A stretch of DNA of 64,000 bases from NCBI GenBank assembly GCA_016861085.1, contig BOKR01000001.1, positions 761,696 to 825,695 of the forward strand. The letters are read 5' to 3'. Within the stretch, counting starts at the first letter, position 1; every line of letters starts with the position of its first letter. The position numbers and the translations under genes are program-made. The DNA is from Patescibacteria group bacterium. Its GTDB lineage: Bacteria; Patescibacteriota; Microgenomatia; UBA1400; PJMF01. This document shows positions 11,446 through 61,204 of the stretch, piece by piece. Under the pieces are notes generated by a model. That model worked only from the letters and a program-made list of their open reading frames with translations. It was not told the origin of the DNA and ran no database searches.

Positions 11446-12497
11446 CCCACTTTTTCATCCTTTTGCTTCTCATTTATCATCTTCTTTAATTTCACCAGTT
11501 CTAGTTCTCTATTAACCATAATATTGTTTAAGTCTTCTAATTCTTTAACTTTCTTCTGAGCAACTTGCTGGTTATCATCTACGCTCTTTGCAATTTCCGA
11601 AAGATCTCTTTTAATCTTCTGCTGTAAATTATTAATAGAATTAGCCATTGTTTCAAATTCATCTTTGGTATCGACTTGAACATAATTTTGATAGTTGCCA
11701 CTTGCAATAAAATCAATAGAAGCAGTTATCTCTTTTATTGGGAATAAGAACCAATACACAAAAAGACCAATTATTATCAAAGCTATTAAAGCTGCAACAA
11801 GTACTTGCCCGGCACTTGTTTGTGCGAACTGTTGGGTTTGACTTAAAACAACCTCTGGCGTAAATGTAATCAATAGATGAAAGTTAATCTGATCAATCCG
11901 TTTCGCAATAAAAAATGAGTCTTTTCCAAAATTTTGTAGATCAGGGGCCTCAAAAGAAAGAACTTCTTCCGAAACTTTTATTTTATCCCACTCAAGCTCT
12001 CTATCCAATGAAACTATTTCTTTTCCCAAATATTGAGACTCTTTTTTACCGATTAACTCTCTTAATTCTGGAACTTCTACTAAACTTTTAAGAATGAGAC
12101 CTTGATTTGTACCGAAAATAACAACACTTGAAGAATCAATCAAATAAATATCCCAACCCTGTTGTGAAAAAAATAACTTTTGAATATTTTCTTCACCAAT
12201 TTTGATAACTGCAACGCCAAGGAATTCTCCAGTATTCTGCCTTGAATAAATTGGATATGAAAAATAATACCCCATGTTGTTTGAAGTTATACCTAAAGCA
12301 GTAGTAATATATACTTTTTCAGACCTAGCTCTAGTAAAGTAATCCCTAAACCCATAGTTATTTCCTTCAAACGTTGGATCTGTTGATGCAAGCGTTAATC
12401 CTTCTGAATTGAGCAAATAAATACTTTCGTAATTTTGCGCCGCATTATATGAGTTAAGATGATCTATATATATCTTGGTGAAGTACACCTTGATCAC
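11442..12497 (-). CDS. Cache-like sensor / TM / HAMP / coiled-coil protein (C-terminal part; probably continuous with 12454-12768 through a frameshift)
   Basis: GTG start. A second TM is followed by HAMP (ITASIDFIASGNYQNYVQVDTKDEFETMANSINNLQQ). No output domain. Confidence 0.5.
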   Translation of the reverse strand: MIKVYFTKIYIDHLNSYNAAQNYESIYLLNSEGLTLASTDPTFEGNNYGFRDYFTRARSEKVYITTALGITSNNMGYYFSYPIYSRQNTGEFLGVAVIKIGEENIQKLFFSQQGWDIYLIDSSSVVIFGTNQGLILKSLVEVPELRELIGKKESQYLGKEIVSLDRELEWDKIKVSEEVLSFEAPDLQNFGKDSFFIAKRIDQINFHLLITFTPEVVLSQTQQFAQTSAGQVLVAALIALIIIGLFVYWFLFPIKEITASIDFIASGNYQNYVQVDTKDEFETMANSINNLQQKIKRDLSEIAKSVDDNQQVAQKKVKELEDLNNIMVNRELELVKLKKMINEKQKDEKVG

Positions 12498-12768
12498 CTT
12501 CTAGAAAATTAATTACCTTTTCATCTTGTGAAAGTATTTTTACCAACCGCTGCGAAACAGAAAATTCATAAGCCAGCCTCTCCTCTTGATAATCTGCAAT
12601 TCTTTTTAATTCATTGGTTTTATCAGTAATTGCTCTATCATTTATCCCCCTGAAAATAACCAGACTGACTCCACTTGCAATGATCGAAATAACTATCAAA
12701 CACACAAACAAGACTTTATAAATCACAGATACATAAGGCCTTCTTATCTTGGCTAAGACAGTTTGCAT
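12454..12768 (-). CDS. N-terminal TM plus start of Cache sensor (5' part of the gene above)
   Basis: Overlaps the next ORF by 44 nt in another frame. The overlap spans a (TA)4-5 dinucleotide tract at 12464-12474. Confidence 0.45.
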   Translation of the reverse strand: MQTVLAKIRRPYVSVIYKVLFVCLIVISIIASGVSLVIFRGINDRAITDKTNELKRIADYQEERLAYEFSVSQRLVKILSQDEKVINFLEGDQGVLHQDIYRSS

Positions 12769-12846
12769 GGGCAGTATTTTTTCATTTGTATACCAACAAT
12801 TTTACTCAATAAATCAGAGGAATGAAAGGGTACAAACTATATTAGT

Positions 12847-13755
12847 TTACTGGCAACTGAATCGTGCAAATACACCAGTCGATAATTGCCGGTTCGTTTT
12901 GGTCTCTTCAATGATTAGTTCTCCGGCTTCTACACTACCGTTGTAGCTCTTCATATTCTCCTGTAATAGTGAGCCTAGAGTCTGTATAGAAATTGGGACT
13001 GCATACGCATTACAAAGCACAAATAATGGCTCATCTACCAAAATCTGTGTACATAAATCCAGTAAGAGTGGAAACGACGATTTAAAATTCCAAACTTCAC
13101 CTTTTGAACCATGGCCGTATGCAGGGGGGTCCATGATGATCCCGTCATACTTCACTCCACGTTTTATCTCTCTAGTCACAAATTTGACCACATCATCCAA
13201 AATCCACCGGATAGATCTTTCATCAAGCCCAGAGGCTAATTGGTTTTGCTTTGCCCATCCAATTGATGACCGAGAAGCATCAACGTGTGTAACTTTTGCT
13301 CCCATTTTTGCACAAACAACACTTGCCATTCCTGTGTATGCAAAAAGATTTAAAATGTGGGGTTGATGCCCTGGATTTTGTTTCTTGTGTTTTTCTAGTA
13401 TATCCTGCATCCATTTCCAGTGCGCGCTTTGCTCTGGAAATATTCCTGTGTGTTTGAATGGCGAGAGGTGCACGCTGGCAACTAAGTCCTGCCAGCGTAT
13501 TGGCCATGACTCAGGCAACTGTTTTTTCATCTGCCAGAATCCTTTGTCACCTTGAGTTTTTCTAAAAGTTGCATCCGCAGTATTCCAAACCTGTTCAGGT
13601 TGTGATTTTGGCCAGTTAATTCCAGGGTGTGGACGTCGTAAAATATATGGGCCAAATCGCTCAAGCTTTTCGTCTCGACCACTATCAATGAGTTCATACT
13701 CATCCCAGCCAGTTTGTTTTATGGTAGTTAGTTTAAAGGACAAAAGATCGCTCAT
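12847..13755 (-). CDS. class I SAM-dependent RNA methyltransferase (RlmI/YccW-like, PF10672-type)
   Basis: LNLFAYTGMASVVCAKMGAKVTHVDAS...DGIIMDPPAYG. Confidence 0.65.
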   Translation of the reverse strand: MSDLLSFKLTTIKQTGWDEYELIDSGRDEKLERFGPYILRRPHPGINWPKSQPEQVWNTADATFRKTQGDKGFWQMKKQLPESWPIRWQDLVASVHLSPFKHTGIFPEQSAHWKWMQDILEKHKKQNPGHQPHILNLFAYTGMASVVCAKMGAKVTHVDASRSSIGWAKQNQLASGLDERSIRWILDDVVKFVTREIKRGVKYDGIIMDPPAYGHGSKGEVWNFKSSFPLLLDLCTQILVDEPLFVLCNAYAVPISIQTLGSLLQENMKSYNGSVEAGELIIEETKTNRQLSTGVFARFSCQ

Positions 13756-28559: not shown

Positions 28560-28588
28560 AGAACATGATTATAGCAAAGAAATTTGAT

Positions 28589-28641
28589 AAACCTTTCGTC
28601 CTTTTGGACTCATCAGTATGGATACACATCCATAGAGGTTT
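28589..28641 (-). ncRNA. type III hammerhead self-cleaving ribozyme
   Basis: Minus-strand RNA AAACCUC^UAUGGAU-GUGU-AUCCAUA-CUGAUGA-GUCC-AAAA-GGAC-GAA-AGGUUU. All conserved core nucleotides are present (C3U4G5A6U7G8A9, G12A13A14, A15.1-U16.1, C17). Stem I is 7 bp, stem II 4 bp, stem III 6 bp. It lies 30 nt upstream of the glyA start. Confidence 0.75.
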
Positions 28642-28735
28642 GCTGTACCTTTCGGTAAATTGTCCGCACGACAATCCAGAATACATTCTGCAGCAACACC
28701 ATAATCTTACTTTAGGCTGATTTAGTTAGTTGAAA

Positions 28736-30229
28736 TCAATTTCCTTCCGAGAGGTAGGCCGGGGCGAACCCGTCAAATACCTCCAGGTCTGGGAAGCCAA
28801 CGCGGTCAATGACCCCGATGTCTAGGCCGGGGAGATCAAGAAGCAGTTCTTCAGGAGCCGTCGCAATCAGAAGAGTTGACATATAGTAATGTAAACCATT
28901 CCCAGAACCAGGTTTGTAGGGGAAGTAGAGGCCAACTGCTTCAAGGCCGGATTTGCCCAGGCCGTTCAGAAGCGACATTGCGAGAGCAACATTGGCGTGG
29001 TCTGGGGTGCCAATGACTGCGTATTTGATGCCGCCACTTGTGCCAACATCAATCGTCCCGGATACGCTTCCGCCCTCTCCGCCGCTGACATTGGCCGAGT
29101 AAGGTGCGGTGTCTTTCCGCAGGTCTCCGAGCAAGTGGACCGCTAACAGTACGCCGGGTTGTTGGCCGTTGCGGATTTGGGGGTACAGGCCGACCCAGTT
29201 GTCGGACTGTTCTATAGCATCCGCCGTTTCAGGAGAGTCAACCAGAAGCACCAGCGAGCTGGGTTCGGGGCTGACCTGCGGGGTCAGAAAGACCCACGCA
29301 TAATAACGGCCGTCACTGAAGACGTATTCCAGGCGGGAAAGTGAGCCAGTGCCAATCAGGTTGGTATTGGGGCCACGGCCGAGGGTGTGCCGGTACGTAA
29401 GCTGGACGGTACCGATTTCCACACCACTGCGGAAAATATGGAAGCCAGTCTGGCGACCAATAATTTCCTTGATGCTGTCCGTGTCCACGATGAAGAGATC
29501 CGGCGTTTCCGCGCCAGTTTGCAACGTGTTACGGATTGAATCGAGGCCGACAGCAACAGTATCAAACGGCGTGCGCGAGGTTTCCCAGAAACCCCATTCA
29601 TGGAACTCGGGAGCAATAACAGTCATCGGGTTTTCCCAGACTGCCGTTGCGCCCATTGCCAGAATGTTTTCGGCGGAGGTGCCCCAGCGTTCGCCATACT
29701 GGATATCGGTCAAGTACAAAGTGCTGGCGCAGGGTTCGGTCACTTCATAGACCAGGGCGACTTCGCCCCGATCAAAGGTCCGAGCAACGCCGCGGAACAG
29801 CCACTGCCAGAGAGTTACGTCCTTCACTTCCAGGATGACCATTCCTTGAACGAGGCAATGGTTGGCATCATAGTACTCGACGACTTCAAGTGAGCCGCCC
29901 AGGTAGTCTCCCCAGGTAACCTGTTGCATTACACCAACTTTGTCGGTAGGTAAATGCCACAAGCGTTCGCTCGCCACACCGCCTGCTCCGCCCTGAGTTT
30001 CTTCGTAATTCAACTCGAAGAAAGGCGAAAGCATTTTTGATGTCTGAGATCCCAGGCCAGCGTGGTAGTTTAAAGTAACCGGGTACTGCCCATTGACGGG
30101 CGGAGGGAGAGGGATAAAGTACTGCGCCGGTGGTTTAGGGGCCGGGTCAGGGTTGCTATCGCAAGCGGCTAAAAAAGCGGCAAGCAACAGCAGGATAATA
30201 GAGATAACGGTCAATTGTTTCTTATTCAT
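28736..30229 (-). CDS. high-GC lipoprotein, hypothetical (probable horizontal acquisition)
   Basis: 497-aa ORF. Signal peptide with lipobox LAAC, then a Pro/Ala-rich linker. The gene body is about 60% GC (one line counted at 37/60) against about 30% in the flanks. Confidence 0.7.
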   Translation of the reverse strand: MNKKQLTVISIILLLLAAFLAACDSNPDPAPKPPAQYFIPLPPPVNGQYPVTLNYHAGLGSQTSKMLSPFFELNYEETQGGAGGVASERLWHLPTDKVGVMQQVTWGDYLGGSLEVVEYYDANHCLVQGMVILEVKDVTLWQWLFRGVARTFDRGEVALVYEVTEPCASTLYLTDIQYGERWGTSAENILAMGATAVWENPMTVIAPEFHEWGFWETSRTPFDTVAVGLDSIRNTLQTGAETPDLFIVDTDSIKEIIGRQTGFHIFRSGVEIGTVQLTYRHTLGRGPNTNLIGTGSLSRLEYVFSDGRYYAWVFLTPQVSPEPSSLVLLVDSPETADAIEQSDNWVGLYPQIRNGQQPGVLLAVHLLGDLRKDTAPYSANVSGGEGGSVSGTIDVGTSGGIKYAVIGTPDHANVALAMSLLNGLGKSGLEAVGLYFPYKPGSGNGLHYYMSTLLIATAPEELLLDLPGLDIGVIDRVGFPDLEVFDGFAPAYLSEGN

Positions 30230-30467
30230 GGTTTTGTTTTTGTTCCAAGTTTTGGGATTAAGGGTTGAGTCAGCCTAGTTAGCGACGTGCGGTCACCAAC
30301 ATAAGCCGACCCCACAATCAAAACCATATAAAAAATCAAAGTAAGATTTTAAGGTGCTCGAAAGTCAAAAAATCACAAATAACATAGCGACTATGCTTTT
30401 CTAATATTATCGACTTTACAGAGGGGAATTATACTACTTTTTATCTTTTTTGTCAAAATTATGGGAT

Positions 30468-35402: not shown

Positions 35403-35717
35403 CTCCCCGAGTAGGATTCGAACCTACAACCTGCCGGTTACATATAACCCATCTATTTCTAGACGGTATGGACTATCTCATTACCATATTCACCATTTGG
35501 CAAAATTAGGCACTGGGTACTCTAGGGTGTACTCACCTAGTCTCTGAACCTTCTTCGTAATATCTTACAAAGCTCGGCTGCGGATTACCATATTCTTGTA
35601 AAAAACAAAAACACAGGCTTCCCGCAATTCACCCAGTTATCATTCCAAAGTTTCCTTTGGAAGCTGCGATTTTGGAATGTTTCACAGCCGGACGCTCTGC
35701 CATTGAGCTATCGGGGA
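35403..35717 (-). tRNA. tRNA-Asn(GUU) interrupted by a group I intron
   Basis: Exons (34 + 38 nt) splice to UCCCCGAUAGCUCAAUGGCAGAGCGUCCGGCUGU|UAACCGGCAGGUUGUAGGUUCGAAUCCUACUCGGGGAG. Cloverleaf with anticodon loop CUGUUAA, U1-A72 and G73 as in E. coli tRNA-Asn. CCA is not encoded. Confidence 0.75.
35441..35683 (-). ncRNA. group I (IC3-like) self-splicing intron in the tRNA-Asn anticodon loop (between nt 35 and 36)
   Basis: 243 nt. The 5' exon ends in U. P1: exon GGCUGU pairs with the internal guide GCAGCU. P2 hairpin UUCCAAAG-GAAA-CUUUGGAA. Conserved CCGCAGCCGAGC and GGUUCAGAGACUA (P7 region). The intron ends in G before UAACC. Confidence 0.7.
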
Positions 35718-55753: not shown

Positions 55754-56431
55754 CCTGAAAGTGGTACTGCGACTAATTTATTTGCGTTGCCAGAACTTCC
55801 AACTCAGCTTCAAAAAAGTATTGAGTTAGTGCAAAGACAAAATGGAATTCTAACTATTTTAATTCATCCTTTTTTCCAACAACTTGGTTCACAGCAGTTT
55901 GATTCTTTTTCAACTCCTCAATTAATGAAATATCTTCTTGAACACGACACAGCTTCAACTAAGGGCCTGAGTGCTCGATCAAGAGGTTCATTACACAGAC
56001 AAATAATCACAAAAGATGTGACGGAGTTAGGTACAATGGCTTATTTTTTTCGTCTGAAAAATCTGCTTGAAAAATCAAACATGATGATCCTTGCACTTGG
56101 AGAATATGGGCCACACGTGGGAGCTTCTATAGCTTTACTCCGTGAGTTTGGATATAAAGGTGACCTGCTGGTATATGAAACAAAAATTGCCGACCCAAAA
56201 CCTGACCCTCGTGAAGGCACGTGGGATGATTTAGCAAGAGCTATAGCATTACTTGCTCCAAAAAAGCTTGTTGTAGGCGGTCAAATGAATAGATGTCCTG
56301 CAGAAAATATGTCTGTTCGTAGAGGTTGTATTCCCGGGTTCGTGACCGATATCAGTGCAAGACTACCCAAAGATAAAAAAACTCAAATTATTATTTCACC
56401 AGTTACTTATCCAAATTGGTGGAAAAAGTAG
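55700..56431 (+). CDS. hypothetical protein
   Basis: Start is probably MKKIIHPE near 55736. Confidence 0.35.
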   Translation: MICWHMVYNTRQMKKIIHPESGTATNLFALPELPTQLQKSIELVQRQNGILTILIHPFFQQLGSQQFDSFSTPQLMKYLLEHDTASTKGLSARSRGSLHRQIITKDVTELGTMAYFFRLKNLLEKSNMMILALGEYGPHVGASIALLREFGYKGDLLVYETKIADPKPDPREGTWDDLARAIALLAPKKLVVGGQMNRCPAENMSVRRGCIPGFVTDISARLPKDKKTQIIISPVTYPNWWKK

Positions 56432-57521
56432 ATTGAAACTTGTTTAAAACTTCACAAACCCATTGAATGTCATCGCTCCTCACATGCAACCCCATCGGTA
56501 AGTACACAATTTTTTGCTTTTTGCTCCAAGGGCTATCGTTAAGTTCAAACCTCAGTAACAGACCGTTTTCACGAACAAACCGCAAAAAAAATTCAGCATA
56601 CTGCAACTCTAAGCCTAACGGAAATCCTCGCAGCTGAGAAAAATCTGGTTCAGAAATTGGAATGTAAAAAAAGTATTTTGATTTTTTTGTTTTCTGCAAA
56701 ATATTTTTGTATAGCTGTGCTTGTTTACGCTTTAGGTCATATATTTTTACAATATTTAGCCTGTTTGACATCCATGCCATTCCAGGAATTCCACATGCAG
56801 GTAACTGTTGATCACCAATAACGTCATAACCCTTTTTCATAGCAAACTCAGCACAAATATTTCCGTATTTTTGAATTACCTTACTTTTTGTGTAGTAAGC
56901 AATATTGAGGAATAGCTCCATTAGCACCCACCAAAAAAATACTTGCAATCGATACCAAGCTGTTAAAAGATTAGTTTTCATGGGAATTTTTGGAATTGGA
57001 TGAACCGAATATACCCAACTGCCCTGCACTGGAACCACTTTTCGCAAACTATCTATAACGTAATGGTTTTTCGTAGCAAATTTGATAGCTTGAGGATCAA
57101 CAACTTTGTGCACACAGTCTTCAATCAAAATAGTTTTTTTTGGCAAAAACTCTAACCATTCCTTTGAATTTTTTAGCAAAGGATTTGTAATTCCAATTGA
57201 ATGAAAAATAACAACAACCGCTGGATTATTTTTTTGTAACTTGTTAATAAAATCAGATTCGTTTGGCTGCAAATATTTGTCTACATTGTAATGAATGTGC
57301 TGCAATCCGTGAGAATTCATGTTATCTGTCACATCACCACAAAAAAATTCAGGAACTAAAACAACTGCATTTTTCTTGATTTTGTGGATTTTGAGCAAAT
57401 GCCACAAAGCGTCCTCCCAAGAAAGAAAAAAACTCCCACTAATTTTTTTTGTTTGAGAAGACAGTTGACTTGAGCGATTGGTAAAATACGTAGGAATCAA
57501 TGGTGGCTGAATAGGGAGCAT
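56403..57521 (-). CDS. hypothetical protein
   Basis: 372-aa ORF with no confident motif. Confidence 0.4.
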   Translation of the reverse strand: MLPIQPPLIPTYFTNRSSQLSSQTKKISGSFFLSWEDALWHLLKIHKIKKNAVVLVPEFFCGDVTDNMNSHGLQHIHYNVDKYLQPNESDFINKLQKNNPAVVVIFHSIGITNPLLKNSKEWLEFLPKKTILIEDCVHKVVDPQAIKFATKNHYVIDSLRKVVPVQGSWVYSVHPIPKIPMKTNLLTAWYRLQVFFWWVLMELFLNIAYYTKSKVIQKYGNICAEFAMKKGYDVIGDQQLPACGIPGMAWMSNRLNIVKIYDLKRKQAQLYKNILQKTKKSKYFFYIPISEPDFSQLRGFPLGLELQYAEFFLRFVRENGLLLRFELNDSPWSKKQKIVYLPMGLHVRSDDIQWVCEVLNKFQSTFSTNLDK

Positions 57522-57843
57522 GATTTTTATCTAAAATAGAGGATTTATATGGGTTCATTTTATCATATTTTGATCTGGTTTACCACTTGTAATATAGCAT
57601 CATTGTGATATACTATTATAGGTTGTTTTGATTTCGTTGCTATGCGCGATGAATAATCAAAAGAGCCACTGTTCTTTAACATACCGCGTGATACTAGATT
57701 TTTTGAAATAAGGTTCGCCCTTGTTGATTATATATGGTTCGTATATTTAGATATGGTACTTTGTGTGATCAACTAGGGCGAGCAAAATTCAAAAATTTAA
57801 TTTAATGCTTGTCCTTTATTCTTTCCCTATAGGTGAAAAACTT

Positions 57844-58188
57844 ATGAAACGTTTGAAAACCATTCTCATCATCGCCAGTTTCTTGATTGGGCTGGCCCTC
57901 CTGGTTGGGTGCGCAAGCGCCCCAACCTCCGCGCCGGCGGCTCCGGCAACCACAACATACGTTGTCACAAATGAAGATGCCCGCTCCGTTGACACCCCGG
58001 CCATCACGGCCGAAGTCACCTGGGACGGCTCTTCCTGGACCTGCAACGTCCAGAACTGCGCCCAGAACAAGCAGATCAATGGCAATACCATGGAATTCTG
58101 GGTTTCCATGGTCAAAATCGCCACGGAAGACGTTGACAACCCCGGCCAACTAATCCCTGAACCCGGCTTTACAGTCTCGGTTAAATAG
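57844..58188 (+). CDS. high-GC small lipoprotein, hypothetical (probable horizontal acquisition)
   Basis: MKRLKTILIIASFLIGLALLVGC (lipobox LVGC), then an Ala/Pro/Thr linker. One 60-nt line counts 42/60 G+C, against AT-rich flanks. Confidence 0.6.
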   Translation: MKRLKTILIIASFLIGLALLVGCASAPTSAPAAPATTTYVVTNEDARSVDTPAITAEVTWDGSSWTCNVQNCAQNKQINGNTMEFWVSMVKIATEDVDNPGQLIPEPGFTVSVK

Positions 58189-58199
58189 TTTGAGTAGAA

Positions 58200-58229
58200 C
58201 TTAGGCACCCTCAACTTGAGGGTGCCTAA
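58200..58229 (+). terminator. rho-independent terminator
   Basis: Perfect 14-nt inverted repeat TTAGGCACCCTCAA-C-TTGAGGGTGCCTAA, then GGTTTCT. Confidence 0.6.
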
Positions 58230-58279
58230 GGTTTCTGCAAATTAAAGCACAGCAACAAAAATCACGCGGTATATAACTT

Positions 58280-58702
58280 TTAATGAGAACTCAACAAACC
58301 AGGATGCTCAGCAGCAATTTTTATAATTTTTTTAAGCGTTGGCAGATTGACTTGTTCTATTTTCTTGAATCGAATGCAGCTTTTACCAACACTGACTTTA
58401 CCTAGTTCGTTCTTATATTTTTCAGCTACATACTCATTATCAACTACGCTACAAATATATACACTCACATAGTTTTTTTGATTAGCTAAAGCAATCACAG
58501 GCCATTCACCTTTTTCTTTTTTGTAATTGGTGTAAGGAAAAGAACCATACCCAATCATATTTGAAGCAAAATGAGGTTTTAGTGTTGGGGCATTTTCTTG
58601 GATAAAAGCGTGAAGAAAATTGATTATTTCTTGACGATCTTCAGGGACTGCATCTATATAAGATTTAATTGATGCAGCTTTGATGGATTTAAACATGTTC
58701 AT
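58280..58702 (-). CDS. DUF1801-domain protein
   Basis: ...YIDAVPEDRQEIINFLHAFIQE... pattern. Confidence 0.55.
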   Translation of the reverse strand: MNMFKSIKAASIKSYIDAVPEDRQEIINFLHAFIQENAPTLKPHFASNMIGYGSFPYTNYKKEKGEWPVIALANQKNYVSVYICSVVDNEYVAEKYKNELGKVSVGKSCIRFKKIEQVNLPTLKKIIKIAAEHPGLLSSH

Positions 58703-58740
58703 TTGTAACTATTGTAACAAATAACTGTTATTGGCGGAGC

Positions 58741-58857
58741 ACCCGGGTCTGGAACCCGTGCGGCCTTATAACCGCTCACTCCACTATGGGTAATTATACT
58801 CAAAATGAGACAAATGGGACACTATAAAAAAGGAGCGTCTTGTTTTTATGAAACAAA
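58741..58857 (+). repeat. repeat family copy 1 (part A hairpin GCGGAGCACCCGGGTCTGGAACCCGTGCGG, part B GACAAATGGGACACTATAAAAAAGGAGCGTCTTGTTTTT)
   Basis: Shares 30-40-nt blocks with the copies at 60154-60210 and 61050-61193. Confidence 0.55.
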
Positions 58858-58862
58858 ACTAT

Positions 58863-58899
58863 TGACAACAAATTAGCAGTCTGATAATATGATTGCTAA
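58863..58899 (+). promoter_or_regulatory. sigma70-like promoter overlapped by a CIRCE-like inverted repeat upstream of the Hsp20 gene
   Basis: TTGACA (58863-68), 16 nt, TAATAT (58885-90). TTAGCAGTC-N9-GATTGCTAA (58873-58899) versus CIRCE consensus TTAGCACTC-N9-GAGTGCTAA. Confidence 0.45.
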
Positions 58900-59028
58900 T
58901 AAGGTGCAAAGGATGTACACATACGCTTTGAGCAGCGAAGTGGTCCTAAATAAGACATCTTGTATTGTGATACATCAGTTTCACCTTTTGATAGTTAGTA
59001 AGTATTAATTAAAAGAAAGGAAAAGACT

Positions 59029-59469
59029 ATGTCACTCGATTTAGTTCCAAGAAGATTACTTTCATTCCCATCTATGGTACCTTCAATTTGGGATAATGAT
59101 GATGATTGGTTTACTGCTCCATCTACCCAAACAGGTTTGTCAATTTCTGAGGATGAGCAGAAAGTGTATGTAGAAGCTGCTCTCCCAGGAATTAATCCAG
59201 ACAACATTGAAGTTACCTATCAAGACGGTTATGTTTGGATAAAAGGAGAACAGCAAGAAGAAGAAAGTGATAAGAAAAAGAAGTATTATCGAAAAGCCTC
59301 AAATGCTTTCTCATACAGAGTTGCTGTTCCTGGTGAAGTTGATTTAAATAAAGAACCAGAAGCAACTTATGAGCATGGAGTGATGAAAGTATCCTTCATG
59401 AAATCTGAGGCAAGCAAGCCAAAGAGAATTGCTATTAAGCAGAAAAAGCAGCTTGGTAGTGGGAAATAA
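59029..59469 (+). CDS. Hsp20/alpha-crystallin family small heat-shock protein
   Basis: Alpha-crystallin domain ...VYVEAALPGINPDNIEVTYQDGYVWIKGE...YEHGVMKVSF. Confidence 0.85.
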   Translation: MSLDLVPRRLLSFPSMVPSIWDNDDDWFTAPSTQTGLSISEDEQKVYVEAALPGINPDNIEVTYQDGYVWIKGEQQEEESDKKKKYYRKASNAFSYRVAVPGEVDLNKEPEATYEHGVMKVSFMKSEASKPKRIAIKQKKQLGSGK

Positions 59470-59577
59470 TCTTGTAGCTTCTGTTTGTTGGGCAGAAACA
59501 TTTTGTTTCTGCCCAAATAAGAGAGGTTAACCATTAATTTCTCTAATTAATTAAGGTTTTCTGAATGTTTTCGCGAT

Positions 59578-60114
59578 ATGAATAAAAAAGTTGGTTTATA
59601 TAATTATCCAATCAGAAGTAGCACCATTGTTACTGCAATGGGAATAGGTTCTGTAGTGCTTTTTGGTATTTTGTTGAGTCTTGTTAGTTATATACCTTTA
59701 ATGTTGCTAAAAGAAATCCTTGCTCCTGAAATTTCTATTACTTTTACCTCCATACTTATACAGATAGCTATTCTTGTTCTAGTGAGTTTTGGAATCATTT
59801 CACTCCTAATGAAGTGGGTTGGAACTTCTTATGTGATTAAAGACAATGAAATTATTGTTCAAAATGGACTATTTAATATCAAACAAAAAATTTATCCACT
59901 TGAGGGTCATGAAGAAGTTAAGATTTATAAATCATTCTTTGGAAAAATTTTTGATTATGGAACGCTATCAATTTATCAGCCCATGCTTCAAAAGTATGTC
60001 ACACTAGAGAATATCCAAGATCCTGATTTATTTGCAGAAGTAGTTAGACAAACTAAGTCAAAAGAATCACTTAGTTCAGAAAAGGTTATTTTTTCAAGAA
60101 AAAAGAGAAAATAA
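59578..60114 (+). CDS. membrane protein with bacterial PH (bPH_2/YdbS-like) domain
   Basis: Two TM helices, then YVIKDNEIIVQNGLFNIKQKIYPLE...LSIYQP. Confidence 0.6.
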   Translation: MNKKVGLYNYPIRSSTIVTAMGIGSVVLFGILLSLVSYIPLMLLKEILAPEISITFTSILIQIAILVLVSFGIISLLMKWVGTSYVIKDNEIIVQNGLFNIKQKIYPLEGHEEVKIYKSFFGKIFDYGTLSIYQPMLQKYVTLENIQDPDLFAEVVRQTKSKESLSSEKVIFSRKKRK

Positions 60115-60153
60115 ATTTGTTTTACAAATATCAACTTATACTTGGATATCCCT

Positions 60154-60210
60154 GTAGTTCGAATCCTGGGATGCGGAGCATGTGGGTCTGGAACCAGTGT
60201 GTCCCCTAGC
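60154..60210 (+). repeat. repeat family copy 2 (GTAGTTCGAATCCTGGGATGCGGAGCATGTGGGTCTGGAACCAGTGTG)
   Basis: Same hairpin with conserved loop TCTGGAA and a partly compensatory stem. Abuts the cupin gene stop. Confidence 0.5.
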
Positions 60211-60213
60211 ACA

Positions 60214-60543
60214 CTATCTAGCCATAGTGAGCAACATCTTGAACTGTTTTGCTGCCTGCAAAGCATGCGGTGTATTGGCAGGTAAAATAAGTACCTGACC
60301 TTCGTTAACTTCGTATTTTTTTTCATCAACTGAAATAATTGCTTCACCATCTAGAATTTGCGCAAAAGCAGTAAAAGGAGTTGTATGCTCACTTAAACCT
60401 TGTCCTTTAGCAAAAGCAAATGCAGTGATAGTAGTTTTTGTGGTTTTAATAAGTTCCCTGCTCACGATAGAGCCACTTTGGTACTCGACGACATTTTTTA
60501 GAACATGCGGCGATATGGTTAGATTATATGTTACTTCTGTCAT
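60214..60543 (-). CDS. cupin-domain protein
   Basis: ...GEAIISVDEKKYEVNEGQVLILPANTPHAL. Confidence 0.6.
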   Translation of the reverse strand: MTEVTYNLTISPHVLKNVVEYQSGSIVSRELIKTTKTTITAFAFAKGQGLSEHTTPFTAFAQILDGEAIISVDEKKYEVNEGQVLILPANTPHALQAAKQFKMLLTMAR

Positions 60544-60565
60544 AATAATATCCTATCATGAAAAC

Positions 60566-61012
60566 CTATTTCAATTGGGTGAGTATACTATCTGCCCATT
60601 GTCTACTTTTTTGATATGTAGCCTGGTTTGGGTAGCCATCAATTTGAAGAACTGGTTCAAGAATATTTCCTTGCATTGGCTCAATTTTTTCACTACTTAT
60701 TTTTCCGCTTGTTGCAAAATGGGGATAACTAGAATCACCAAGTGAGAAAAAAGCAAAATGTGTATTGTTGCAATTATGATTTTGTTGATCAGCTGTTGAA
60801 AAAAATAATTCAGTAATTGGGTTTAAGTCTCCATCCCCATACGTAGAGCTACCAAAAAAAACCAACTCATGCTCTTTTAGTTGATCGGGATTGGTATTAA
60901 TAACATCAAATAACTCTGCTTTGTGACCATTATTATTTAGATAATCAACGAGATCATTAGCTACAAGCGCCGTATTTCCCGATAGAGTAGAAAATGTTAC
61001 TGCAATTTTCAT
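60566..61012 (-). CDS. flavodoxin-like fold protein
   Basis: MKIAVTFSTLSGNT...FFGSSTYGDGD. Confidence 0.6.
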   Translation of the reverse strand: MKIAVTFSTLSGNTALVANDLVDYLNNNGHKAELFDVINTNPDQLKEHELVFFGSSTYGDGDLNPITELFFSTADQQNHNCNNTHFAFFSLGDSSYPHFATSGKISSEKIEPMQGNILEPVLQIDGYPNQATYQKSRQWADSILTQLK

Positions 61013-61049
61013 ATGACTTTTATTTTAGTTTCACAAGTCCTCGTCACTG

Positions 61050-61204
61050 TAGTTCGAATCTTAGGATGCGGAGCACGCGGGTCTGGAACCCGTGCGTCGT
61101 TATAACTGTCCCATTCCAGGATCGAGCTTCCAGGGTAATTCTACCAAAAACGGGACAAATGGGACACTATAAAAAGAGAGTGTCTTGTTTTTGAAGCTCG
61201 ATCA
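61050..61204 (+). repeat. repeat family copy 3 (part A and part B, with flanking 11-nt inverted repeat GATCGAGCTTC/GAAGCTCGATC)
   Basis: Part A GTAGTTCGAATCTTAGGATGCGGAGCACGCGGGTCTGGAACCCGTGCG. Part B GACAAATGGGACACTATAAAAAGAGAGTGTCTTGTTTTT. Confidence 0.55.

Follow-up and report, generated by a model that had tools for sequence, protein, structure and literature searches.

The small lipoprotein gene at positions 57844-58188 (+ strand) of the window, that is, the whole 64-kb stretch of DNA analysed, is proposed to be a native envelope-protein gene, probably highly expressed, that is carried in an rRNA-like Nus/boxA closed-loop cassette, a reading to which we give a probability of about 0.55. 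The host is a Pacebacteria-like CPR bacterium (MAG BroJett025; complete genome of 1.17 Mb) of anammox-reactor communities, and its DNA is present in the sequencing runs DRR258780, SRR8466088, SRR31091722 and SRR31091724.

The lipoprotein gene and its C-ending codons

The coding sequence, defined by the open reading frame list, its composition and a 13-member family, encodes a protein of 114 aa, rather than the 115 aa given in the original prediction. It is preceded by the Shine-Dalgarno sequence AGGTGA, read from the sequence at 57831-57836 (+), and either AAGGAG or AGGTGA stands at the aligned position in the homologues. The N-terminus, MKRLKTILIIASFLIGLALLVGC, contains the lipobox LVGC with Cys23, followed by the linker APTSAPAAPATTT, both as originally described. 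When a bacterial lipoprotein signal was defined by a positively charged n-region, a hydrophobic h-region and a lipobox of the form [LVI][ASTVI][GAS]C, the signal peptide and lipobox (57844-57912, +) were found to consist of MKRLK, TILIIASFLIGLAL and LVGC, respectively, and the product is predicted to be a small membrane-anchored surface lipoprotein, by its signal a substrate of Lgt/LspA. The mature domain is small and beta-rich with the motif WDG..W.C...C.Q, and the AlphaFold model of the protein (pLDDT 80.5) is all-beta; searches of the PDB by fold and by sequence returned no match. The minus-strand open reading frames at 57802-58149 and 57816-58214, previously regarded as artefacts, do exist and have no support as genes. 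A structured-RNA gene in place of the open reading frame was rejected, as Rfam was empty and the frame carries conserved protein features, and no repeat of the 3′ part of the gene, as a DGR target, was found within 57300-58500.

A word-seeded search with the 114-aa protein recovered only the gene itself; orphan status was rejected, since an exhaustive scan (HMMER over 1.84 billion representatives) yielded 5 homologues and a profile search 13. All 13 are lipoproteins with a lipobox and conserved W/D/G/C/Q positions, and the lipobox Cys is invariant across the 13-member alignment.

The gene has a GC content of 55.7% and a GC3 of 68.7% (0.687), vs. 37% GC for the window. A GC of 65–70%, as first estimated, was too high for the whole gene, 64–76% being reached only in single 50-nt windows, while the gene does form a sharp compositional island between AT-rich flanks. 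In 345-bp windows, only two stretches of the 64 kb exceed 50% GC, namely the 57844-58188 gene and the 28.7–30.2 kb stretch, which holds a companion gene encoding a 497-aa lipoprotein with the lipobox LAAC (28736-30229, − strand; GC 0.55). The lipoprotein nature, Pro-rich linker and high GC ascribed to both genes in the original prediction were borne out, with a lipobox in each and both being >50% GC islands. Homology of the two lipoproteins was rejected, as BLASTP gave an E value of 0.087 and hhalign aligned only the signal peptide and linker. The 497-aa family comprises 16 homologues, of which those named or located are all from CPR; the model of the 497-aa protein has a pLDDT of 81, and no PDB match was found for it.

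Codon usage was compared between the two genes and the background, as had been suggested, and a single shared signature opposed to the background was obtained. The GC3 values of the 114-aa and 497-aa genes were 0.69 and 0.61, respectively, vs. 0.20–0.43 in 67 other ORFs, while a value of 0.30 was expected from the amino-acid sequence and the window codon usage (z of ~10 and ~16, respectively). The RSCU values of the two genes correlated with each other at r = 0.66, and with the background at −0.35 and −0.39. C/(C+T) at two-fold sites was 0.74 and 0.64 in the two genes vs. 0.27 ± 0.09 in other genes, and the C fraction at four-fold sites was 0.52 and 0.43 vs. 0.12 ± 0.04, while G/(G+A) in Gln/Lys/Glu codons remained at background (0.29 and 0.33). 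The enrichment is C-specific, with C in place of T or A at synonymous sites, and four-fold codons ending in G rise slightly too. These results point to selection on codons, and not to a GC-rich donor, as the source of the high GC, the bias being C-specific rather than GC-general, and they are best read as a synonymous recoding to C-ending (with fewer G-ending) codons that is kept by selection in every lineage examined.

The pattern resembles that of codon-optimised highly expressed genes, which favour C over U in pyrimidine-ending codons, in that C is raised at two- and four-fold sites with a flat G/(G+A), and the ribosomal-protein genes of a related CPR locus (L005) show a codon shift in the same direction. 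In contrast, the S15, IF2, NusA and DnaK genes of relatives shift far less than the lipoprotein genes, and in L001 and L004 they show no C enrichment. Given that such usual highly expressed genes are not C-enriched, ordinary translational selection seems to be weak in the genomes concerned, and the recoding may have another purpose. The recoding is likely kept because the protein would be made in large amounts, so that translation efficiency and/or mRNA stability matter; high expression is itself suggested by the promoters, the codon bias and the architecture.

The structured leader, boxA and the predicted transcript-closing helix

A promoter scan located a sigma-70-type promoter at 57587-57614 (+), with the −35 element TTGTAA (57587-57592), a 16-nt spacer and the extended −10 element TGaTATACT (hexamer at 57609-57614), and the same −35/−10 positions are conserved in the lineages L013, L018, L019, L029 and L031. 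From the presumed transcription start to the ATG extends a leader of ~225 nt (57621-57843, +), supported as structured by conservation and covariation. The leader and trailer flanking the 114-aa gene are better conserved across lineages than the coding sequence (alignment A4), and in the leader 96% of cells are paired, with compensatory changes in nine pairs and a covariation score that was reached by 0/500 shuffles. Rfam 15 gave only two weak matches on 57000-59000 (E of 0.26 and 0.47), both far under the gathering scores and neither on the leader sense strand, and no match on the cassettes of seven other loci. The leader is a structured RNA motif that is well supported and new, with no counterpart in Rfam. 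The same scan of the small cassette found no hammerhead or other ribozyme.

The 5′-terminal stem domain (57621-57667, +) is a GGTTG...CAACC-type stem around a hairpin with a 5-nt loop, which reads CUAUG in the window and AAUGC or AUUGC in other lineages; its single-sequence folds agree in all lineages, covariation occurs in helices 1 and 2, and in position the domain appears boxB-like. Further downstream, RNAalifold predicted a long 22-bp hairpin with a variable loop (57713-57783, +), in which five pairs (alignment A5) or six pairs (alignment A7) show compensatory changes. Most of the one-sided changes in this hairpin leave a G.U pair, which is tolerated only in RNA of the sense strand, and a few cells are unpaired. 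An alternative hairpin, GGGCGAGCA (57776-57784) pairing with TGCTTGTCC (57806-57814), is followed by a U-rich run (the element spanning 57776-57828, +); its stems covary in all lineages folded, and the U-run follows it in most of them, the L017/L019/L029 type excepted. As it and the long hairpin compete for the 3′ arm of the latter, the 57776-57828 element looks like an attenuator.

Between the 5′-terminal domain and the long hairpin, a motif scan detected GTTCTTTAACA at 57671-57681 (+), an exact match to the NusB/NusE boxA consensus GYTCTTTAANA as used in PMC5725501. It is the sole exact match on both strands of the 64-kb window (128 kb), one-mismatch matches occurring there at chance frequency. 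The boxA starts 57 nt past the −10 hexamer, from which the start site was placed, and lies after the 5′ stem domain and 163 nt upstream of the ATG; it is predicted to be single-stranded in the leader folds as well as in the whole-transcript fold. The element is exact in the window and in three lineages retrieved by homology of the protein (L017, L018 and L019); in L013 a single position differs. Among the intergenic boxA-like sites in CPR loci, 11/13 precede C-rich genes of the cassette type, and NusA is present in relatives. A literature search gave nothing on boxA, or on GC-rich lipoprotein genes, in Patescibacteria.

A complementarity search revealed a long-range helix whose upstream arm, ATACCGCGTGAT (57681-57692, +), abuts boxA, and whose downstream arm, ATCACGCGGTAT (58261-58272, +), follows a conserved GCAACAAAAA-type stretch. 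The two arms are perfectly complementary (12/12 nt), have no further exact copy in the window, and were both found in 8/8 lineages. When the predicted transcript (57621-58275) was folded, the MFE and centroid structures alike contained the closed 12-bp helix. RNAduplex energies of the leader vs. the 3′ UTR were uninformative, as huge interior loops were permitted. The small-family arms are invariant across lineages and their pairing has no covariation; in six of the loci carrying the left motif, which were retrieved by searching that 18-mer, the motif is invariant by construction, while the right arm and the five lineages found by protein homology do not depend on this retrieval. Such invariance would equally fit a protein-binding DNA site. 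A MITE or transposon with terminal inverted repeats was rejected, since the repeats do not mark the ends of an element: conservation continues for 125 nt outside the left one, across the 5′ domain and the promoter.

The 3′ UTR contains a perfect 14-bp hairpin with a 3-nt loop (58200-58230, +; 58200-58213 pairs with 58217-58230), which lies in a stretch (58186-58275) of −32.6 kcal/mol (z of −5.2) and is retained with differing sequences in 7/8 lineages. Of the perfect 14-bp-stem terminator originally described, the G+C-rich stem is present as stated, while its role as a terminator is doubtful: the sequence directly after the stem is GUUUCUG and no U-run, the terminator scan made no call, and the conserved 3′ arm of the closing helix lies 31 nt downstream. 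If this hairpin terminated transcription, the arm would be missing from the mRNA.

A comparable plan is found at the 497-aa gene. Its leader (30270-30456, −) carries the consensus promoter elements TTGACA (30456-30451) and TATAAT (30433-30428) with a 17-nt spacer, a hairpin (30395-30383, −), the boxA-like GCACCTTAAAA with two mismatches (30357-30347, −), and two arms, AATCTTACTTT (30348-30338, −) and TAGGCTGA (30277-30270, −), whose partners in the 3′ UTR (28703-28720, −) are TCAGCCTA (28720-28713) and AAAGTAAGATT (28713-28703). L004, L001 and L038 form the same two leader–3′ UTR helices with sequences that are changed yet complementary, and compensatory changes between the window, L004 and L038 support the helices of this family. 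The boxA is exact in the large-family locus L007, and the Band7 gene of L001 carries GCTCTTTAACT together with a complementary arm in its 3′ UTR. Two other, unrelated gene families have boxA, exact or with one mismatch, at the corresponding place in their leaders. The shared leader/trailer plan supports a common mechanism as the probable cause of both GC islands. A hammerhead also belongs to the 497-aa gene and is specific to the lineage of the window.

Probable native origin and alternative explanations

Assembly chimerism, named in the original prediction as a finding that would speak against it, was excluded, as both loci are reproduced in independent Logan assemblies. Some homologues of both families were analysed as proteins only, and all those whose contigs were read lie in low-GC CPR-type DNA and are GC-richer than their flanks. 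For the small family, gene vs. flank GC was 0.52 vs. 0.33 (L018), 0.51 vs. 0.36 (L019), 0.51 vs. 0.37 (L017) and 0.445 vs. 0.39 (L013), and in L023 and L031 the gene has a GC of 0.53–0.54 within loci of 0.36–0.37; the large family has 0.49–0.55 vs. 0.38–0.40 in the flanks, down to 36% amino-acid identity. The neighbours of the 114-aa gene are housekeeping genes. Family members stand in differing immediate gene contexts, and MutL–MutS–NUDIX lies 6–7 kb upstream of the gene both in the window and in L013, a shared neighbourhood that suggests vertical inheritance. The 114-aa gene is best read as native and as a member of a rare family that is known to date from CPR-type DNA only.

A recent horizontal transfer of both lipoprotein genes from a moderately GC-rich donor, e.g., a host bacterium, with unameliorated composition and with the flanking repeats as insertion scars, would account for strong composition and codon outliers that stop at the gene borders, for the single codon pattern common to both genes and for the differing contexts of family members. 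It is quite improbable, as no homologue placeable in a GC-rich organism was found in 5.8 billion clusters or in the HMMER scan of 1.84 billion representatives, and homologues with read contigs are GC-enriched within low-GC DNA down to 36–45% identity, where neutral amelioration would be complete. Further, the AT-rich leader and trailer are conserved along with the gene, G is not raised in the Glu, Lys and Gln codons, the wider MutL–MutS neighbourhood is shared with L013, and the gene borders (57300-58500) have no integrase, tRNA target or direct repeats, the nearest tRNAs being 2.6 and 4.3 kb off. The gene is like horizontally acquired genomic islands in that its atypical GC and codon usage are limited to one gene. 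Unlike them, it is a lipoprotein gene without donor or mobility genes, has native AT-rich regulatory flanks and a bias that persists family-wide, and all its placeable homologues are in low-GC CPR-type contigs rather than in a different lineage of matching composition. The homology search that had been proposed has placed the locatable homologues of both genes in CPR-type DNA only, and of the two origins offered for them originally, a common mechanism gains from the shared codon signature, lipoprotein signal and linker, and leader/trailer plan, while a common foreign source is opposed by the missing donor, the low-GC CPR homologues and the C-specific shift.

The invariance of the arms bears on two more alternatives. 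The invariant 24-mer and its downstream copy might be the sites of a DNA-level operator or looping regulator, or of another RNA-binding protein, with the likeness to boxA coincidental and the GC bias unrelated (due, e.g., to avoidance of AU-specific RNases or to biased gene conversion in a surface gene that recombines often). Zero variation in 12–24 nt across lineages while the neighbouring helices vary, and the lack of C bias in classical highly expressed genes of L001 and L004, fit such sites; however, the exact consensus match is unique in 128 kb, boxA recurs at the same leader position in two unrelated families, and gene conversion or general GC pressure would raise G at R-ending codons too, which is not seen, so this explanation is considered unlikely. 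Invertible lipoprotein switches occur in mycoplasmas, and phase variation, in which the 12-nt inverted repeats would be recombinase sites inverting a ~570-bp segment and uncoupling the gene from the promoter at 57587-57614, would agree with perfect, invariant repeats that flank the gene and leave the promoter outside, with an invariance typical of protein-recognised sites, and with a surface lipoprotein as a plausible phase-variable antigen. Yet only one orientation relative to the outside flank TTTAAC was seen in 8/8 assembled lineages, no recombinase gene adjoins any copy, and the left arm abuts an exact boxA in a geometry that is the same in the E. coli 16S leader. Moreover, the arms of the 497-aa family and of Band7 differ between lineages yet are complementary, which indicates a constraint at the RNA level and not a recombinase site; phase variation is therefore regarded as very improbable.

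Proposed mechanism and comparison with known systems

The gene is proposed to lie in a self-contained cassette that begins with the promoter and the 5′-terminal stem domain. The boxA would then load NusB/NusE and the Nus complex onto RNA polymerase, as in rRNA operons. The 12-nt arm right after boxA would pair with its complement past the coding region, and by this pairing across the coding region the transcript would be closed in a loop that holds the long regulatory hairpin, the ribosome-binding site, the open reading frame and the stable 3′ hairpin. On the model of 16S rRNA, the polymerase tethered at boxA would bring the 5′ arm to the 3′ arm as soon as the latter emerges, and the helix so closed might shield the ends of the mRNA or serve in processing by RNase III, for which 12 bp is short. 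More tentatively, at somewhat less than even odds, a set of Pacebacteria-like CPR envelope-protein mRNAs, those of two unrelated lipoprotein families and of Band7/SPFH, may be transcribed and matured like rRNA precursors, with the open reading frame in a closed-loop RNA and the C-recoding co-adapted to it.

These results imply that a sharp single-gene GC island in a reduced genome need not be foreign DNA, and composition-based HGT screens would wrongly flag both lipoprotein genes. The cassettes offer a testable case of the boxA/Nus machinery on protein-coding genes that share the complete geometry of a 16S processing stalk, and are relevant to the open question of Nus functions beyond rRNA; if the mechanism holds, it would be an undescribed route to bacterial mRNAs that are very stable or very highly expressed, and Nus/boxA would gain a new function. 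Two or three proteins that are uncharacterised, have an unknown fold and are so far confined to CPR would be probable major surface components of bacteria thought to live attached to a host, and they would be useful targets for proteomics, antibodies and structural work.

In E. coli, the ompA and lpp mRNAs have long stabilising 5′ leaders and 3′ hairpins and encode abundant envelope proteins. The window gene shares with them the 5′-end stem-loop, the long leader, the strong 3′ hairpin and a product of the abundant-lipoprotein type, its abundance being presumed, while no boxA or end-to-end helix is known for ompA or lpp. A boxA in mRNA was reported for the suhB 5′ UTR and other putative targets, with Nus factors at work beyond rRNA (Baniulyte et al., 2017; PMC5725501). 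Those sites, at most ~50 nt from the start codon, act to repress translation; a 5′–3′ closing helix was not described for them (PMC5725501). The CPR genes are similar in having a consensus boxA in the mRNA 5′ UTR, but here it stands far upstream of the ATG, is coupled to a closing helix and belongs to C-rich envelope-protein genes.

The closest parallel is the E. coli rRNA leader. In the rrsH leader, as read here, a 17-nt arm, separated from boxA (GCTCTTTAACA) upstream of it by 4 nt, pairs with the 16S trailer, and a looping model has been described in which boxA-tethered Nus factors aid formation of the 16S closing helix (PMC4807359). The window cassette differs in that it encloses a translated 345-nt open reading frame with its own ribosome-binding site instead of an rRNA, in that its closing helix is 12 bp vs. 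at least 17 bp in E. coli, and in that boxC was not recognised in it, Nus binding and RNase III cleavage there being putative. In both, however, a promoter is followed by a hairpin, a boxA and, within 0–4 nt, an upstream arm, whose partner stands just past the 3′ end of the enclosed body.

The GC-rich lipoprotein genes and their codon bias

The window belongs to a contig of 1.17 Mb from the MAG 'Patescibacteria group bacterium BroJett025'. The ORF at 57844–58188 (+) encodes a 114-aa protein with the lipoprotein signal MKRLKTILIIASFLIGLALLVGC and a Pro/Ala/Thr linker, and is preceded by an AGGTGA ribosome-binding site; translation thus bore out the lipoprotein nature and the linker named in the original prediction. 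The gene has a GC content of 55.7% (GC1/2/3, 0.50/0.48/0.69) vs. a window mean of 36.9%, peaking at 76% in single 50-nt windows, so that the 65–70% first assigned to it was too high. Overall, the predicted gene, GC island and 3′ hairpin are real, while the numbers had been overstated and the terminator is doubtful.

A word-seeded protein search with the product returned nothing beyond the gene itself; an exhaustive HMMER scan of 1.84 billion representatives found five homologues, and a profile search enlarged these to a family of 13, so orphan status was rejected. All 13 members carry a lipobox and share W60, G62, W65, Q77, F85, A93, E95, G101 and G108, with D61 and C67 nearly invariant. The small gene is a new addition to this uncharacterised family of lipoproteins. 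Its product is a small all-beta domain for which no PDB relative was found by sequence or fold, and two conserved Cys probably form one disulfide; as to its role, the most we can say is that it appears to be an exposed envelope protein. The neighbouring 372-aa ORF at 56403–57521 (-), just upstream of the conserved cassette, matched no Pfam family (E ≤ 0.01).

Only one other stretch of the window exceeds 50% GC, the companion gene for a 497-aa lipoprotein at 28736–30229 (-), and either a common foreign source or a common mechanism had been proposed for the two. Assembly chimerism was checked and not found, and an artefact was rejected for either locus, as both are reproduced in independent Logan assemblies from other sequencing runs. 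At the small gene, its 3′ part is joined to the DUF1801 gene as in the window, one assembly (L008) matching window 57997–61107 at 99.97% identity; at the 497-aa gene, the full surroundings are recovered in four (L009–L012).

Small-family homologues with a readable contig all lie in low-GC DNA with genes of the Patescibacteria (CPR) type, and all are GC-richer than their surroundings: 0.52 vs. 0.33 (locus L018), 0.51 (GC3 0.59) vs. 0.36 with neighbour-gene GC3 of 0.17–0.26 (L019), 0.51 vs. 0.37 (L017), 0.445 vs. 0.39 (L013), and 0.53–0.54 in loci of 0.36–0.37 (L023 and L031). The large family, that of the 497-aa protein, has 16 members, including one Pacebacteria and one Collierbacteria by name; gene vs. 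rest-of-locus values are 0.49 vs. 0.376, 0.52 vs. 0.379, 0.53 vs. 0.40 and 0.55 vs. 0.39, and the enrichment persists to 36–45% amino-acid identity. A GC bias kept across such deep divergence is maintained and is no leftover of recent transfer. Consistently, MutL-MutS and NUDIX genes lie 6–7 kb upstream of the small gene in both the window and L013, which fits vertical inheritance. No homologue of either family was assignable to a GC-rich organism in searches that included the HMMER scan of 1.84 billion representatives, and with all read contigs being of the low-GC CPR type, a common foreign source is unsupported. The small gene is real, conserved and native.

Three MAGs carrying the cassette (L023, CAZDWQ010000077.1; L029, CAZUHV010000001.1; L031, CAZZDG010000048.1) are titled 'uncultured Pseudomonadales bacterium'. 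The stretches fetched from them have 36–38% GC, one of the contigs being 575 kb long, and they look like CPR genomes under a wrong taxonomic label.

Among the 69 window ORFs, GC3 was 0.69 for the small gene, 0.61 for the 497-aa gene and 0.20–0.43 for the others, the value expected from amino-acid sequence and window codon usage being 0.30 (z of about 10 and 16, respectively). The comparison of codon usage revealed one common pattern, RSCU of the two genes being positively correlated (r = 0.66) and that of each negatively correlated with the background (r = -0.35 and -0.39). At two-fold pyrimidine-ending codons, C/(C+T) was 0.74 (small gene) and 0.64 (497-aa gene) vs. 0.27 ± 0.09 in other window genes, and C at four-fold sites was 0.52 and 0.43 vs. 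0.12 ± 0.04 (maximum 0.20). G/(G+A) in Gln, Lys and Glu codons was at background, 0.29 and 0.33 (0.27–0.32 in relatives' loci), GAA was commoner than in the background, and CGC/CGT stood in place of AGA/AGG. A GC-rich donor, general GC pressure and biased gene conversion are all disfavoured, since G at purine-ending codons should then rise too; a shift confined to C is the outcome of selection on decoding, to which depletion of A/U in the mRNA may contribute. The C-specific shift is present in most homologues of both families, and ribosomal-protein genes of a Collierbacteria locus (L005) are shifted in the same direction vs. their neighbours. S15, IF2, NusA and DnaK of the large-family loci L001 and L004 are without it, indicating that the selecting force is far stronger on the GC-rich genes than on the classical set with high expression. 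The GC richness of the small gene is thus a C-ending codon bias conserved family-wide.

The conserved cassette of the small gene

In the alignment of cassettes, non-coding DNA is conserved beyond coding DNA. A conserved sigma-70-type promoter (+; -35 at 57587–57592, extended -10 ending at 57614) is followed by a conserved leader of about 225 nt (+) up to the ORF, and the last conserved stretch, 3′ of the hairpin, reads GCAAGCAACAAAAATCACGCGGTAT (GCACAGCAAC in its first part in the window). A repeat search identified two perfectly complementary 12-nt arms on either side of the gene, ATACCGCGTGAT at 57681–57692 and its complement at 58261–58272, the arm having only these two copies in the window. 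This inverted repeat brackets the gene in all other lineages as well, the arms being 553–584 nt apart in the four others scanned. Searching public genomes and metagenomes with the left 18-mer added four distinct cassettes (L023, L029, L031 and L032, the last nearly identical to L013) and recovered L013 itself in exact copies (L025 and L035); at every locus so found, the right arm is present together with a GC-rich small-gene homologue. The left motif is conserved by construction in these loci, and the independent evidence is that of the five protein-found lineages (window, L013, L017, L018 and L019) and of all right arms.

The hairpin at 58200–58230 (+) varies in sequence and is kept as a structure in 7 of 8 lineages. 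Of the perfect terminator originally predicted, the 14-bp stem is real, but the U-tract is absent and the terminator scan made no call, because GTTTCTG follows the stem. Lying inside the closing loop, this hairpin is more likely a 3′ stabiliser or processing stop than a terminator. In L017, L019 and L029, one small-family sub-lineage only, the 3′ UTR opens with a C-rich tract, CCTCCCTCCCCCCGTCGCC, just past the stop codon.

All small-family leaders contain one common set of folded elements (+): a 5′-terminal stem domain (57621–57667), including a hairpin with a 5-nt loop that is CUAUG in the window and AAUGC/AUUGC in other lineages; an invariant 24-mer, TGTTCTTTAACATACCGCGTGAT, unpaired in the folds; a 22-bp hairpin (57713–57783); an alternative hairpin that uses the 3′ arm of the latter and is followed by a U-run in most lineages (57776–57828 with the U-run); and the Shine-Dalgarno sequence. 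In a seven-sequence alignment, 96% of cells were paired and nine pairs showed compensatory changes, a number reached by 3 of 500 shuffles; the covariation score was 0.347 vs. 0.252 in shuffles (0/500) and 0.04–0.13 with partners slid. One-sided changes mostly preserve the pair as G.U, tolerated solely in sense-strand RNA. Rfam yielded no matching family for this leader, nor for seven cassettes from other loci.

The 24-mer opens with GTTCTTTAACA, an exact match to GYTCTTTAANA, the consensus of boxA, the NusB/NusE site of rRNA operons (Baniulyte et al., PMC5725501). On both strands of the window, the exact consensus occurs in this leader only; one-mismatch matches are at chance frequency (18 seen vs. 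21 expected).

Related leaders and RNA elements at other genes

Upstream of the 497-aa gene, TTGACA and TATAAT spaced by 17 nt form a consensus promoter, itself preceded by a conserved TCCTATAAT element, and leaders of this gene's family contain a hairpin with an AUUGC-type loop and a boxA-like site at one aligned position: exact in L007 (GTTCTTTAATA), with one mismatch in L001, L004 and L038 (GCACTTTAACA) and with two in the window. The leader segment right after this site pairs with the 3′ UTR, and a second segment near the Shine-Dalgarno sequence pairs with an adjacent 3′ UTR segment. These helices are AATCTTACTTT/AAAGTAAGATT and TAGGCTGA/TCAGCCTA in the window, CAACTTACTTT/AAAGTAAGTTG and TAGGCTGGTT/AACCAGCCTA in L004, and ATATTCGGTT/AACCGAATAT and ACTGACT/AGTCAGT in L038. 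Arms that differ in sequence while keeping complementarity are evidence for RNA pairing, and argue against reading the inverted repeats of the small gene as recombinase sites. The 497-aa gene shares nativeness, C-ending bias and the leader/closing plan with the small gene, and the common mechanism is supported by the like codon pattern and leader/3′ UTR plan, which now provide a concrete candidate.

A third, unrelated family is represented by the neighbouring Band7/SPFH gene in L001 (11875–12795, cassette 11700–12880; GC3 0.44). Its promoter is of the same type (TATAATATTGACA...), and its leader contains a boxA-like GCTCTTTAACT overlapped by an arm, TGATATGAA, whose complement lies in the 3′ UTR of the gene; this combination suggests a regulon-like class of cassettes. 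Of 13 intergenic boxA-like sites that have a gene downstream in the CPR loci, 11 stand in front of such C-rich genes, which belong to three independent families only.

The upstream TCCTATAAT-like element is common to large-family and Band7 promoters. Hairpins with a similar 5-nt loop (AUUGC/AAUGC) lie 20–30 nt upstream of boxA in relatives' leaders of both lipoprotein families (small, L013, L018, L019, L029 and L031; large, L001, L004 and L007); at these positions the window has loops CUAUG (57636–57650, +) and UCGC (30383–30395, -, 497-aa leader). The boxB-like hairpin and the UP-like upstream element may be recognition elements.

A complete type III hammerhead ribozyme, with CUGAUGA and GAAA cores and three helices, was observed at 28588–28642 (-), between the 497-aa gene, whose stop is 94 nt upstream, and the SHMT gene, which starts 29 nt downstream (E = 4e-9; 45.6 bits, gathering score 48.5). 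The corresponding position is taken by an ordinary terminator hairpin in L001 and L004, and hammerheads were not found in L003, L004, L005 or L007; in the window's lineage, self-cleavage of the ribozyme may generate the mRNA 3′ end. At 35449–35693 (-), among only doubtful ORFs, there is a group I catalytic intron (RF00028, 79.8 bits, E = 1e-18), with no rRNA or tRNA called around it by Rfam or ARAGORN. In L038, a 500-bp stretch (1800–2300) of 51–54% GC in a 39% GC contig is without a convincing ORF and may be a structured RNA gene.

The predicted closing helix and rRNA operons

The predicted transcript 57621–58275 folds with a 12-bp closing helix in both MFE and centroid structures and an unpaired boxA (energy z = -14.5 vs. 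shuffles). We infer that Nus factors would bind the boxA, and that the closing helix would form in vivo, where joining the transcript ends would stabilise or process the mRNA. Both lipoprotein genes are presumably very highly expressed, and their codon recoding would be linked to this expression mode.

In the small-gene cassette, a structured leader with covariation and an exact boxA are combined with a complementarity that would close the transcript in 16S leader/trailer geometry; judged from its sequence, the cassette appears to be a new variant of boxA/Nus-associated regulation. In the rRNA model, NusB/E-bound boxA is tethered to the elongating polymerase, which aids the leader arm in reaching its downstream partner (Singh et al., PMC4807359). 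For E. coli rrsH, the boxA of the leader (GCTCTTTAACA) is separated by 4 nt from a downstream 17-nt arm, which has a perfect complement in the trailer, 28 nt past the 16S rRNA end. In the small-gene cassette, the arm begins on the last boxA base and its partner lies 73 nt past the stop codon.
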